In this document: one piece after another, positions 3,001-6,673 of the stretch | Layout: every line of letters begins with the position of its first letter | Position numbering within the stretch: position 1 is the stretch's first letter | DNA from: Escherichia coli | GTDB taxonomy: Bacteria; Pseudomonadota; Gammaproteobacteria; Enterobacterales; Enterobacteriaceae | Length of the DNA: 64,000 nucleotides | NCBI RefSeq assembly: GCF_030384885.1 | Contig: NZ_CP128613.1 | Reading direction: 5' to 3' (one strand) | Position numbers: made by a program

Positions 3001-6000
3001 ATCGATCTTGATGACGTGATGTTGCACAGCGAAGTTAACCTGCCGATTGATTTCCTCGTTAACCAGACGCTGACGCTGGGGACTGAGTGGAATCAGCAGC
3101 GGATGAAGGACTTAAGTTCCAACACCCAGGCGCTGACCGGAACGAATACCGGCGGTGCTATTGATGGTGTGAGTGCCACCGACCGTAGCCCATATTCAAA
3201 GGCAGAAATTTTCTCGCTATTTGCCGAAAACAACATGGAGCTGACTGACAGCACCATCGTAACGCCGGGGCTGCGTTTCGATCATCACAGCATTGTCGGC
3301 AATAACTGGAGTCCGGCGCTGAATATATCGCAAGGTTTAGGCGATGACTTCACGCTGAAAATGGGCATCGCCCGTGCTTATAAAGCGCCGAGCCTGTACC
3401 AGACTAACCCGAACTACATTCTCTACAGTAAAGGTCAGGGCTGCTATGCCAGCGCGGGCGGCTGCTATCTGCAAGGTAATGATGACCTGAAAGCGGAAAC
3501 CAGCATCAACAAAGAGATTGGTCTGGAGTTCAAACGCGACGGCTGGCTGGCGGGCGTCACCTGGTTCCGTAACGATTATCGCAATAAGATTGAAGCGGGC
3601 TATGTGGCTGTAGGGCAAAACGCAGTCGGCACCGATCTCTATCAGTGGGATAACGTGCCGAAAGCGGTGGTTGAAGGTCTGGAAGGATCGTTAAACGTAC
3701 CGGTTAGCGAAACGGTGATGTGGACCAATAACATCACTTATATGCTGAAGAGTGAAAACAAAACCACGGGCGACCGTTTGTCGATCATCCCGGAGTATAC
3801 GTTGAACTCAACGCTGAGCTGGCAGGCGCGGGAAGATTTGTCGATGCAAACGACCTTCACCTGGTACGGCAAGCAGCAGCCGAAGAAGTACAACTATAAA
3901 GGCCAGCCAGCGGTTGGACCGGAAACCAAAGAAATTAGCCCTTACAGCATTGTTGGCCTGAGCGCGACCTGGGATGTGACGAAGAATGTCAGTCTGACCG
4001 GCGGCGTGGACAACCTGTTCGACAAGCGTTTGTGGCGTGCGGGTAATGCCCAGACCACGGGCGATTTGGCAGGAGCCAACTATATCGCGGGTGCCGGCGC
4101 GTATACCTATAACGAGCCGGGACGTACGTGGTATATGAGCGTAAACACTCACTTCTGATGCTAACGTCAGATTGTTGACAAAGTGCGCGTCGTTCATGCC
4201 GGATGCGGCGTGAACGCCTTATCCGGCCTACAAAAATCTTGCCAATTCAATATATTGCAGGATAGTGTAGGCCTGATAAGCGTAGCGCATCAGGCAGTTT
4301 TGCGTTTGTCATCAGTCTCTAATATGGTCGATATGAAAACTACGCATACCTCCCTCCCCTTTGCCGGACATACGCTGCATTTTGTTGAGTTCGATCCAGC
4401 AAGTTTTCACGAACAGGATTTACTCTGGCTGCCGCACTACGCTCAACTGCAACACACTGGACAGAAACGCAAAACAGAGCATTTAGCCGGACGGATCGCT
4501 GCTGTTTATGCCTTGCGGGAATGTGGCCTTAAATGTGTGCCCGCAATCGGCGATCTACGCCAACCTATGTGGCCTGCGGGGGTATTTGGCAGTATCAGCC
4601 ACTGCGGGACTACGGCATTGGCAGTGGTATCCCGTCAACCCATTGGCATTGATATCGAAGAGATTTTCTCTGTACAAACCGCAAGAGAATTGACAGACAA
4701 CATTATTACACCAGCAGAACACGAGCGACTCGCAGAATGCGGTTTAACCTTTTCTCTGGCGCTGACACTGGCATTTTCCGCCAAAGAGAGCGCATTTAAG
4801 GCAAGCAAGATACAGGCCGCTCAAGGTTTTCTGGATTATCAGATAATTAGCTGGAATAAACAGCAGATCATCATTCGACTAGAGGATGAGCAGTTTGCTG
4901 TGCACTGGCAGATAAAAGAAAAAATAGTCATAACGCTGTGCCAACACGATTAATTGACAACATCTGGTACGATTCGCCCGCAGCCATCACTGACCACGGG
5001 CGAAAGTGTAAAGCAGGTGCCTTACCATCCTGACCTGACAACCGGATATGCGGGGATTACTCCCCGCACAACGGCTACTTCTTCGGTTCGTAAGCGAGAA
5101 CAGCCCTGAACTCAATATTACGTTCCTTTACGGTGAACTCACACAGCGAGTCGCCGACCAGAAGCGTAAATCCCAGCACTGTCAAACACAGCACTATGAC
5201 CGCCACAAGGGCATATTTCGTCAGCATGTTTATATTGCCTCCATGCGAAGAAGGGACTACCATCCAAATTGTCTGGTTTGGAGTGGCGGCCCCAGGGTTG
5301 ATAGAAATATCTCCTGGGGCTTCATCTTTCCAGACCTCAGAGTTAACCTGAAACCGGAAAGCTTCAGGCACCCGCCGTTATCTTACCCTTCCTTAGCAAA
5401 ATGGCTGTTTATTTATACAGTAAATCCTGTTCCGGACTTTTCATTAGTATTATCGCCCATGCCAGTTAAACGAAATCGCCCGCAGCCATTGCTGACCGCG
5501 GGCGAAAATGTAAAGCAGGTGCCTTACCATCCTGACCTGACAACCGGATATGCGGGGATTACTCCCCGCACAACGGCTACTTCTTCGGTTCGTAAGCGAG
5601 AACAGCCCTGAACTCAATATTACGTTCCTTTACGGTGAACTCACACAGCGAGTCGCCGACCAGAAGCGTAAATCCCAGCACTGTCAAACACAGCACTATG
5701 ACCGCCACAAGGGCATATTTCGTCAGCATGTTTATATTGCCTCCATGCGAAGAAGGGACTACCATCCGAGTTGTTGAGGTTCGGAGTGGCAGCCCCAGGG
5801 TTGATAGAAATATCTCCTGGGGCTTCATCTTTCCAGACCTCAGAGTAAACCTGAAACCGGAAAGCTTCAGGCACCCGCCGTTATCTTACCCTTCCTTAGC
5901 AAAATAGCTGTTTATTTATACAGTAAATCCTGTTTCGGACTTCTGTTGGCAAAACTGATCATTGCCCTTAAAACGACATCGCCCGCAGCCATCACTGACC

Positions 6001-6673
6001 GCGGGCGAAAGTGTAAAGCAGATGCCTTACCATCCTGACCTGACAACCGGATATGCGGGGATTGCTCCCCGCACAACGGCTACTTCTTCGGTTCGTAAGC
6101 GAGAACAGCCTTAAACTCAATATTACGTTCCTTCACCGTAAACTCACACAGCGAGTCTCCGACCAGAAGCGTAAATCCCAGCACCGTCAAACACAGCACT
6201 ATGACTGCCACAAGGGCATATTTCGTCAGCATGTTTATATTGCCTCCATGCGAAGAAGGGACTACCATCCAAATTGTTCGGGTTTGGAGTGGCAGCCCCA
6301 GGGTTGATAGAAATATCTCCTGGGGCTTCATCTTTCCAGTCCTCAGAGTAAACCTGAAACCGGAAAGCTTCAGGCACCCGCCGTTATCTTACCCTTCCTT
6401 AGCAAAATGGCTGTTTATTTATACAGTTGGTCTTATTTCGGACTTCTCACTACGCATTAGATCAACCGAAACTAAGCCAGTTTTTCCTTCGCCCCTCAAT
6501 CGTCAAAATTCTCCGCCGCCAGCCAGCTCTGCCATAACTTGGCACATTGCAAAAGTAGCCAAACTTCTTCAGTCACAATCAGTTCACCATCTCCAAAAAA
6601 AGAAATATTCCAGAACTTCCGCATCTCCCCCGGCCGCTCCCACTTCTATACTGAAATGAAAACGCCAACATAA

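Follow-up and report, generated by a model that had tools for sequence, protein, structure and literature searches.

Most statements about hokE of Escherichia coli rest on the K-12 copy, which is broken by IS186. The window analyzed here (a 64,000-nt stretch of E. coli contig NZ_CP128613.1, to whose positions all coordinates refer) has an undisrupted hokE locus, in which three copies stand between entD and ybdK. The locus raises the questions of whether the three copies are genuine and old, whether they keep the elements of a working toxin-antitoxin module, and what the differences between them mean. In short, three diverged, intact-looking hokE/sokE copies between entD and ybdK represent a known, annotated system at a rare copy number; in fact, E. 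coli 2013C-4282 (NZ_CP027579.1) matches the window, and three hokE genes are already annotated there by RefSeq. We consider it very probable that the three hokE/sokE paralogs of this spacer are structurally intact type I toxin-antitoxin modules and would work by analogy with hok/sok of plasmid R1. The repeat structure, open reading frames (ORFs), homologies, predicted folds and population distribution were computed in the present study, from which we infer transcription, processing, control by Sok and killing.

The tandem array and its distribution

A direct-repeat search located three head-to-tail units of about 503 bp each at 4958-6452, bounded by entD (end at 4953) and ybdK (start at 6683); the initial annotation, which had described three tandem units of about 502 bp at 4961-6450, agrees closely with this. 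Two co-linear families of direct repeats make up the array, namely D1 (300 nt, three copies at 4958-5257, 5460-5759 and 5963-6262, 94-95% identical to the reference copy) and D2 (175 nt, three copies at 5272-5446, 5775-5949 and 6278-6452, 93% identical), and the start-to-start spacing of the units is 502 or 503 bp. Tandem Repeats Finder called nothing at the array, because a period of 502-503 bp lies just above the longest that it calls (500 bp). On the basis of the repeats and the alignment, all three modules lie on the minus strand: unit 1 (4958..5459; type alpha) is proximal to entD, unit 2 (5460..5962; type beta, the rarest type) is in the middle, and unit 3 (5963..6452; type gamma, the type of K-12 hokE/sokE) is proximal to ybdK. 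In the 468-nt core, the pairwise identity is 97.0% between units 1 and 2, 95.1% between units 1 and 3, and 94.7% between units 2 and 3.

One could attribute the third copy to an assembly artefact or to a duplication that is very recent and restricted to the strain, as mis-assembly of 0.5-kb tandem repeats can occur and, in our survey of 5,426 complete genomes, three uninterrupted copies were rare (at least six genomes, among the matches listed). However, the units diverge by 3-5%, and an equivalent three-unit array, in the alpha-beta-gamma order and with 96.7-98.0% identity, is present in five further complete genomes of independent origin (France, South Korea, Nebraska and elsewhere in the USA). 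Furthermore, N96, a seventh genome, combines three copies with two IS copies, and each unit type is present also in two-copy genomes, at the expected position. Both the fresh duplication and the artefact were rejected on the divergence of the units and on the independent genomes, and we regard this explanation as extremely improbable. Since the units differ at 3-5% of positions, sequencing reads can be placed on them unambiguously. The units cluster by array position and type, not by genome; unit 1 clusters with the units at position 1 in the other genomes with three copies, and unit 3 with the single K-12 unit. Judged from these alignments, the units are old paralogs that recur at the equivalent array position in other genomes, as the initial annotation had suggested in calling the copies diverged and not freshly duplicated.

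The copy number of the locus varies from one to three in the population, in which IS insertions are frequent, and two copies were found in about 42% of an evenly spaced sample of genomes. Arrays composed of more diverged types could lie hidden among the matches with about 94% identity, but an evenly spaced sample of 60 matches contained no three-copy array from diverged types, which suggests that the frequency of hidden three-copy arrays is at most a few per cent. A beta-type probe matched approximately 144 of the 5,426 genomes, and a delta-type probe (from CFT073) was built from the alignment of units; the type prevalence figures are approximate because the probes may cross-match (in O157:H7, 96.5% for alpha and 94.7% for gamma).

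Toxin genes and predicted antisense RNAs and folds

Each unit has an ORF for a protein of 50 aa on the minus strand, and all three ORFs are named hokE by RefSeq: hokE-1 (5075..5227; WP_000956467.1), hokE-2 (5577..5729), which is nucleotide-identical to hokE-1, and hokE-3 (6080..6232; WP_000956465.1). Three minus-strand Hok ORFs of this length, with an R-to-K change in copy 3, had been noted before, and we found the change to be R41K, accompanied by seven synonymous changes. Pfam HOK_GEF (PF01848) matches residues 5-46 of HokE (E value, 3.9e-8), and the NCBIfam HokA and Hok models match with E values of 1e-10 to 1e-13, yet under their curated cut-offs. The pN/pS ratio of the ORF is about 0.11 and the seven synonymous changes of unit 3 against units 1 and 2 stand beside a single conservative one; on this comparison, the hokE ORF is under purifying selection. 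Codon 46 of hokE-1 (5090..5092, minus strand), a TAC within TACG, is the putative site at which TadA would convert A to I and thereby Tyr46 to Cys (Y46C), and by alignment the equivalents are at 5592-5594 in unit 2 and 6095-6097 in unit 3 on the same strand. The TACG sequence is invariant in all of the 25 units compared, and its A is unpaired in local folds. For the K-12 gene, which is transcribed, editing has been reported (40% edited; PMC5630033, PMC12214031).

In each unit, Rfam family RF01794 matches the leader on the hok-sense strand over the full model (1-157), with scores of 81.8, 83.6 and 86.8 bits for units 1, 2 and 3, respectively (gathering score, 59). From these matches and from folding, the hok leaders were placed on the minus strand at 5219..5373 in unit 1 (predicted +1 at 5373, tac at 5366-5373, predicted Sok-target hairpin at 5259-5287), at 5721..5876 in unit 2 (5876, 5869-5876 and 5761-5790, respectively) and at 6224..6379 in unit 3 (6379, 6372-6379 and 6264-6293, respectively). 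The sole recognizable element of the hok promoter is a -10-like TAAGAT. In the minimum-free-energy fold of the 409-nt full-length mRNA of unit 1, tac and fbi are predicted to pair, nt 1-8 with nt 352-359 (fbi AGGCACCU, 5015..5022, minus strand). The corresponding folds pair nt 1-8 with nt 353-360 in both other units, where fbi is AGGCACCU at 5517..5524 in unit 2 and AGGCAUCU, with one G-U wobble, at 6020..6027 in unit 3 (both on the minus strand). The initial annotation had proposed that the fold-back elements be compared with those of R1 hok/sok, and an R1-type plasmid control folded by the same method behaves alike, with nt 1-7 paired with nt 385-391. The folding model thus predicts R1-type closure of the full-length mRNA between its 5' and 3' ends by tac and fbi in all three units.

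When the mRNA was truncated in silico before fbi, a hairpin appeared at nt 87-115, and type beta has a compensatory change from A-U to G-C in the stem of this target hairpin. A YUNR U-turn motif was sought in the predicted target loops of the three units and none was found. The segment of the mRNA that contains the Sok promoter and the hok Shine-Dalgarno sequence (nt 118-153) is invariant in 25 units from 11 genomes. At the 3' end, units 2 and 3 have an intrinsic-terminator-like hairpin with a U-rich tail (5476..5505 and 5979..6008, respectively, minus strand), as called by a terminator scan. The scan did not call the 3' hairpin of unit 1 (4974..5003, minus strand), recognized from its inverted-repeat arms, which has 13 bp and no U-tract and abuts the stop codon of entD.

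The annotated 60-nt sokE of K-12 (b4835) is 100% identical to positions 6276-6335 of the window, and units 1 and 2 have variants of this sequence. From the alignment with K-12 sokE, the promoter motif and the predicted fold, we placed three putative Sok genes on the plus strand: Sok-alpha (59 nt, 5271..5329; -35 at 5235-5240 and -10 at 5258-5263), Sok-beta (60 nt, 5773..5832; -35 at 5737-5742 and -10 at 5760-5765) and Sok-gamma (60 nt, 6276..6335; -35 at 6240-6245 and -10 at 6263-6268). The promoter motif, TTGCCT-N17-TACCAT, is invariant, and a hairpin with a U-rich tail is present in every unit. A consensus promoter scan with a 9-of-12 threshold found nothing at the array, because the Sok promoters score 8 of 12, just below the threshold; they were placed by the motif and by alignment to K-12 sokE. 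As far as sequence can indicate, the plus strand of each unit would thus hold a Sok gene served by a promoter and a terminator of its own. One Sok RNA per unit on the plus strand had been expected in the initial annotation, and this part is supported at the sequence level by the K-12 sokE alignment. Its placement opposite the start of mok is not, as no R1-type mok was found.

Overlapping mok-like frames had been assigned to copies 2 and 3. Translation shows that the 83-aa ORFs in these copies (5577-5828 and 6080-6331) are in the same frame as hok and are N-terminal extensions of it. We looked in the three units for an R1-type mok, that is, a Shine-Dalgarno sequence and start codon in the Sok-covered region, and did not find it; within the covered part of the hok mRNA (nt 45-104, opposite the Sok gene), there is no start codon opening a mok-type leader ORF that is conserved across the three units. 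The 83-aa frame begins with the AUG at nt 49-51, which reads in the hok frame in units 2 and 3 and is shifted away from it in unit 1. Likewise, in units 2 and 3 an R1-like frame runs from a GUG at nt 3 through 77 open codons that include no internal start; in unit 1, this frame is shifted. The sole conserved upstream AUG (nt 111/112 of the mRNA) shares the frame of hok and has no Shine-Dalgarno sequence, and its complementarity to the Sok -10 hexamer confounds the meaning of its conservation. A mini-ORF of four codons starts with an AUG at nt 131. Because the frames are in frame with hok and an R1-type mok was not found, the wording "hok/mok units" and "opposite the mok start" is unsupported by the sequence. 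However, an upstream AUG in frame with hok is present in a plasmid variant of the R1 type (L013) as well; therefore, the frame alone may not be decisive.

Relation to the K-12 locus, IS186 and plasmid R1

The K-12 hokE/sokE locus (b4415/b4835) shares with the window units its position between ybdK and entD, the leader, the 3'UTR hairpin and the TACG editing site, and K-12 HokE differs from HokE-3 at 1 of 50 residues and from HokE-1 and HokE-2 at 2 of 50. In contrast to the three uninterrupted units of the window, K-12 has one type gamma unit that is split by IS186B inside the GGGG(N6)CCCC hairpin, and the Sok tails of the alpha and beta units are unlike that of K-12. The statement in the initial annotation that K-12 has a single hokE beside IS186 proved accurate, as hokE of MG1655 is at 607836-607988 and IS186B begins 18 nt past its stop codon, so that the dcb/fbi elements and the terminator are cut off from the ORF. 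IS186 had also been described as absent from the window, and a search of its full length found no IS186 sequence. In all three units, the 3'UTR hairpin contains an empty copy of the IS186 target motif GGGG(N6)CCCC, as defined previously (PMC5009759), at 5052..5065, 5554..5567 and 6057..6070, and the equivalent site in K-12 is the occupied one. The defect of K-12 hokE has a simple explanation in that its 3'UTR hairpin belongs to the rare GGGG(N6)CCCC hotspots of IS186. We suppose that IS186 would insert repeatedly into this hairpin, K-12 being one case, and that the array arose by old tandem duplications, its copy number now varying probably through unequal recombination between units.

The R1 hok/sok system, the mechanism of which is reviewed in PMC9841398, has in common with the window units the Hok/Gef toxin and the RF01794 leader. 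The -10 sequence is TATGAT in R1 and TAAGAT here, in both cases 6 nt before a G-rich +1; the antisense promoters have a similar layout (TTGCGC-N17-TATCCT in R1, TTGCCT-N17-TACCAT here), and both Sok RNAs end with GGGGCU...CUUU. Unlike those of R1, the modules in the window are chromosomal and tandemly repeated, their leader is shorter (hok AUG at nt 147/148, against 169-174 in R1 types), and Cys46 would be obtained by RNA editing, whereas in R1 it is encoded. R1 also has the start codon and Shine-Dalgarno sequence of mok in the region covered by Sok, which the window units lack. Post-segregational killing is not expected of a chromosomal locus; according to earlier work summarized in a preprint (bioRxiv 10.1101/2025.08.07.668861), intact chromosomal hokA, hokB and hokC reportedly gave no such killing.

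Possible function and divergence of the modules

By analogy with R1, each module would produce a minus-strand hok mRNA of about 400 nt and a plus-strand Sok RNA of about 60 nt from its own promoter. The full-length mRNA would be locked by pairing of the 5' tac with the 3' fbi until slow trimming of the 3' end strips fbi, after which the leader would refold and expose the hairpin that is read by the single-stranded 5' tail of Sok, and the Sok-mRNA duplex would then be degraded. Once the labile Sok is no longer made, HokE, a membrane toxin of 50 aa, would be translated, and full toxicity probably also requires the editing of Tyr46 to Cys by TadA. The intact elements and the purifying selection are compatible with the possibility that the modules are functional. 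Alternatively, they may be conserved-looking but inert relics, which are transcribed although Hok is never translated in vivo, with a neutral copy number. The failure to find an R1-type mok would fit this explanation, and the variable copy number with frequent IS insertions argues against strong selection for any single copy. However, the low pN/pS over the 50-codon ORF, the invariance of the Sok-promoter/hok-Shine-Dalgarno core and of the TACG site across 25 units, the compensatory change that preserves the target hairpin, and the retention of tac/fbi pairing in unit 3 by a G-U wobble all weigh against it, as does the inclusion of HokE among the previously characterized toxic control peptides in the toxicity assay of the above preprint (bioRxiv 10.1101/2025.08.07.668861). 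We therefore consider inert relics unlikely, though deserving of attention, and favor structurally intact modules.

The units differ most in the 5' tail of Sok and in its target loop. One possible explanation is that the modules are mutually insulated, that is, that tails and loops were diversified under selection so that each Sok would control its own hok mRNA. Seven of the 23 variable sites of the 400-nt transcript fall within nt 86-109 (scan permutation P = 0.016), a clustering statistic that is modest, and the diversity there (0.13-0.15 in 25 units) compares with at most 0.06 over most of the remaining transcript, only the 3' end being comparable. The differences are constant within a type and fixed from one type to another, and 3-5 of them lie in the first 11 nt of Sok. 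For cognate pairs, a duplex energy of -68 kcal/mol is predicted, compared with -50 to -60 kcal/mol for non-cognate pairs. A precedent exists in the Sib RNAs, which repress their cognate ibs mRNAs alone (PMC2943612), and by analogy the Sok RNAs of the window may discriminate in the same manner. However, a cis-antisense pair remains complementary whatever mutates, and thus the loop and tail region may simply drift freely; moreover, the types share about 40 identical nt in the 60-nt duplex, and cross-repression may therefore still occur. Insulation is thus a tentative proposal, which we hold to be doubtful on balance. Slightly more speculative still is the extension that the hokE locus is a combinatorial array of at least four insulated types (alpha, beta, gamma and delta), in which the IS186 motif serves as a recurrent off-switch of modules; if true, the strain would have three independent, un-switched toxin circuits. 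Three hokE/sokE modules at one locus are natural material for asking whether chromosomal hok/sok modules are active and whether tandem Sok RNAs tell near-identical targets apart, although the practical value is modest.

A literature search found no paper on the entD-ybdK hokE array, on the alpha, beta, gamma and delta types, or on the link of the locus to the IS186 target site. Tandem duplication is typical of type I loci (PMC2887945), and the hok "islets", ldr/rdl (LDR-A/B/C), ibs/sib and zorO/zorP resemble the window array in that whole modules of toxin and antisense RNA are duplicated head-to-tail in a single intergenic region. The three hokE ORFs, spaced 502-503 bp apart and encoding proteins that are at least 98% identical, fall within the definition of a tandem hok "islet". 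Such islets, with 2-6 homologs less than 2 kb apart, contain 10% of Hok genes, and 98% of Hok islets consist of a single 60%-identity cluster (bioRxiv 10.1101/2025.08.07.668861).

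Structure and distribution of the three-copy array

The repeats between entD (which ends at 4953) and ybdK (6683-7801) belong to the known hokE/sokE system, here as a rare three-copy haplotype that RefSeq already annotates. The three head-to-tail units of about 502 bp described in the initial annotation were recovered by a repeat search, which found two co-linear repeat families with three copies each at a spacing of 502/503 bp (4958-6452). The mean column identity of the three-way unit alignment is 95%, and the pairwise identity over a 468-nt core is 97.0% (units 1 and 2), 95.1% (units 1 and 3), and 94.7% (units 2 and 3). 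The spacing exceeds the maximum period of Tandem Repeats Finder (500), which is why this program did not call the array. A single base differs from the E. coli 2013C-4282 chromosome (NZ_CP027579.1) over the 5,301 bp compared: at 5906, in unit 2 and some 30 nt upstream of the hok +1 predicted there, the window has A and the record has G, as do units 1 and 3 at the equivalent site. Between fepA (1861-4158) and entD, 4187-4274 matches ES036 (44.4 bits; gathering score, 37.6) and, below threshold, naRNA4, and appears to be a REP-type palindromic element.

The locus was matched in 5,415 of 5,426 complete E. coli genomes. Among 60 evenly spaced records sampled for copy number, most had one hokE copy (33) or two (25), one matched entD only, and three copies were found in the top match alone; when the matches in the 5,426 genomes were ranked by score, at least six genomes had three uninterrupted copies. 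IS421 (IS186-family) and/or IS150 lies within the matched span in 20 of the 33 single-copy records. About 12 of the 60 records have no entD match beside the array; in Nord8 (L009, 1-1500) and similar strains, two SDR-family oxidoreductase genes replace entD on the non-ybdK side of a two-copy array. Type I loci are recognised to undergo tandem duplication (PMC2887945), and Hok "islets" of 2-6 copies are on record (bioRxiv 10.1101/2025.08.07.668861). Our literature search found no paper on the type structure of the entD-ybdK hokE array or its IS186 motif, and we regard these as refinements of a known system.

As initially annotated, each unit contains a 50-aa Hok toxin ORF on the minus strand (5075-5227, 5577-5729, and 6080-6232). 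All three ORFs carry the RefSeq name hokE and match Pfam HOK_GEF; the NCBIfam Hok models also match, but under their curated cut-offs. The unit 3 ORF differs from those of units 1 and 2 by seven synonymous changes and one conservative change, and pN/pS is about 0.11 for 16 distinct ORF sequences, which indicates that purifying selection acts on the hokE ORF. Codon 46 is TAC within TACG in every unit, and the A is predicted to be unpaired in local folds; in K-12 hokE mRNA, about 40% editing by TadA changes Tyr46 to Cys (PMC5630033, PMC12214031). From the intact elements and the sequence constraint, we infer that the modules may be active. In earlier work, other intact chromosomal hok loci did not cause post-segregational killing (summarised in bioRxiv 10.1101/2025.08.07.668861).

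Predicted transcripts and the mok frame

The plus strand of every unit carries TTGCCT-N17-TACCAT and, downstream of it, a predicted RNA that is about 60 nt long and has a single-stranded tail of about 10 nt followed by a hairpin and then CUUCAUCUUU. The annotated K-12 sokE (b4835, 60 nt) lines up exactly with this RNA and is 100% identical to 6276-6335; the Sok sequences of units 1 and 2 show three to four differences from it, all within the first 20 nt. The plus-strand Sok expected earlier for each unit is placed here as a prediction. Opposite the hok leaders, RefSeq has pseudogenes that are frameshifted and named "hypothetical protein" (5196-5469 and 6201-6460, plus strand), and in some other genomes an intact 89-aa ORF is annotated there (e.g., WP_001332745.1 in CFT073); lying in a structured leader, such ORFs seem to be spurious.

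Rfam RF01794 ("sok"; gathering score, 59) matched each unit over the whole model with 82-87 bits (5219-5373, 5721-5876, and 6224-6379, minus strand). Despite the family name "sok antitoxin", the matches fall on the hok-sense strand; the consensus ends with the hok AUG, and Sok is the reverse complement of about model positions 45-104. Since the start of the consensus resembles the 5' end of the hok mRNA of plasmid R1, model position 1 is the predicted hok +1 (5373, 5876, and 6379). It is preceded by a -10-like TAAGAT and 6 nt, mirroring the TATGAT and 6 nt of the R1-type plasmid locus. In predicted folds of the 409-nt transcript of every unit, nt 1-8 (GGGUGCCU) pair with nt 352-360 (AGGCACCU), the partner in unit 3 being AGGCAUCU with a G-U wobble retained. 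By the same procedure, nt 1-7 of an R1-type control pair with nt 385-391, which is the published stem between tac, the 5' element, and fbi, its 3' partner (model in PMC9841398); a 5'-3' closure as in R1 hok/sok is therefore predicted for all three units. When the RNA is cut in silico before fbi, nt 87-115 are predicted to become a hairpin. Two units end in a terminator-like hairpin with a U-rich tail; the 3' hairpin of unit 1 adjoins entD and has no U-tract.

The overlapping "mok-like" frame assigned to copies 2 and 3 did not stand, as these 83-aa ORFs share the hok reading frame. In units 2 and 3, the frame matching R1 mok runs open from a GUG at nt 3 across 77 codons with no internal start; in unit 1, a 1-nt deletion shifts this frame. 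Only one upstream AUG is conserved (nt 111/112). It shares the hok frame, lies 12 codons ahead of the hok AUG and 7-8 nt past the Sok-covered region, and has no Shine-Dalgarno sequence; because it is complementary to the Sok -10 hexamer, its conservation proves nothing. For these reasons, an R1-type mok is not demonstrated in the hokE units at the sequence level. A putative 4-codon mini-ORF (AUG GAG GCA AUA UAA; 5229-5245, 5731-5747, and 6234-6250, minus strand), invariant in 25 of the 25 units examined, spans the hok Shine-Dalgarno sequence and ends 2 nt short of the hok AUG. Whereas mok of R1 is out of frame with hok, an R1-type hok/sok variant on plasmid pMTY1886_IncFII (L013, 233-660) has an in-frame AUG at the mok position (nt 112, with 19 codons to the hok AUG at nt 169); the PGAP annotation of this locus has just a truncated Hok of 33 aa.

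History and divergence of the units

We compared 25 units taken from 11 genomes whose copy number ranges from one to three. In the neighbour-joining tree, the units cluster by array position, not by genome: window unit 1 with the units that stand first in other three-copy genomes and in one two-copy genome, unit 2 with middle units and the first units of other two-copy genomes, and unit 3 with ybdK-proximal units, including the single K-12 unit (types alpha, beta, and gamma). The single unit of CFT073 represents a fourth type, delta. Type-specific 57-nt probes matched approximately 1,120 (alpha-like), 144 (beta-like), 3,483 (gamma-like), and 2,447 (delta-like) genomes, the counts being approximate because the probes can cross-hit. 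The clustering by position indicates that the duplications are old, and the present-day arrays look like products of loss and recombination. This grouping and the 3-5% pairwise difference agree with the initial view that the copies are diverged rather than freshly duplicated.

Nucleotides 118-153 (Sok promoter, hok Shine-Dalgarno sequence, and start) show zero variation in the 25 units, and diversity is maximal at nt 82-118, which cover the 5' tail of Sok and its target loop and in which each type has fixed, type-specific sequences. In type beta, the stem of the hairpin has a compensatory change from A-U to G-C. One possible explanation of the divergence between types is selection for insulation, for which Sib/Ibs, where insulation was shown, is a precedent (PMC2943612). 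The type-specific sequences, the clustering of variable sites within the window (of 23 in the 400-nt transcript, 7 fall in nt 86-109; scan permutation P = 0.016), and the predicted Sok-hok duplexes (about -68 kcal/mol for cognate versus -50 to -60 for non-cognate pairs) fit this explanation. An alternative, that nt 82-118 are merely free to drift, fits equally well, because a cis-antisense pair keeps its complementarity under any mutation.

IS186 target motifs and other elements of the window

K-12 has a single hokE with IS186 alongside, as stated in the initial annotation; the element begins 18 nt past the stop codon, within the 3'UTR hairpin, and separates the ORF from the dcb/fbi elements and the terminator. 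This hairpin is GGGG(N6)CCCC, a highly specific IS186 target with 19 sites in K-12, which also has 35 GGGG(N7)CCCC sites (PMC5009759). All three motifs are empty in the present array (5052-5065, 5554-5567, and 6057-6070), and a search of the whole window found no IS186 sequence, in agreement with its reported absence. In strain N96, a three-copy array is combined with two IS copies, and the arrays of two further strains show rearrangements mediated by IS elements. The hokE arrays of N96 (L014), 2017-02-2CC (L015), and E200086 (L016) carry two IS421 (IS186-family) copies each, which adjoin units 1 and 3 in N96; in 2017-02-2CC, the array seems inverted between them. Such arrays fit repeated IS186 targeting of the 3'UTR hairpins.

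Elsewhere in the window, domains of group II introns are matched by Rfam on the minus strand (24642-24717 and 26342-26459; Intron_gpII, 62.8 bits; group-II-D1D4-2, 93.1 bits), which suggests a group II intron of about 1.8 kb. The same strand carries tRNA-Arg(TCT) (34635-34711), a naRNA4/REP element (47986-48064; 73.1 bits), and the sRNA STnc480 (56229-56295; 85.5 bits).
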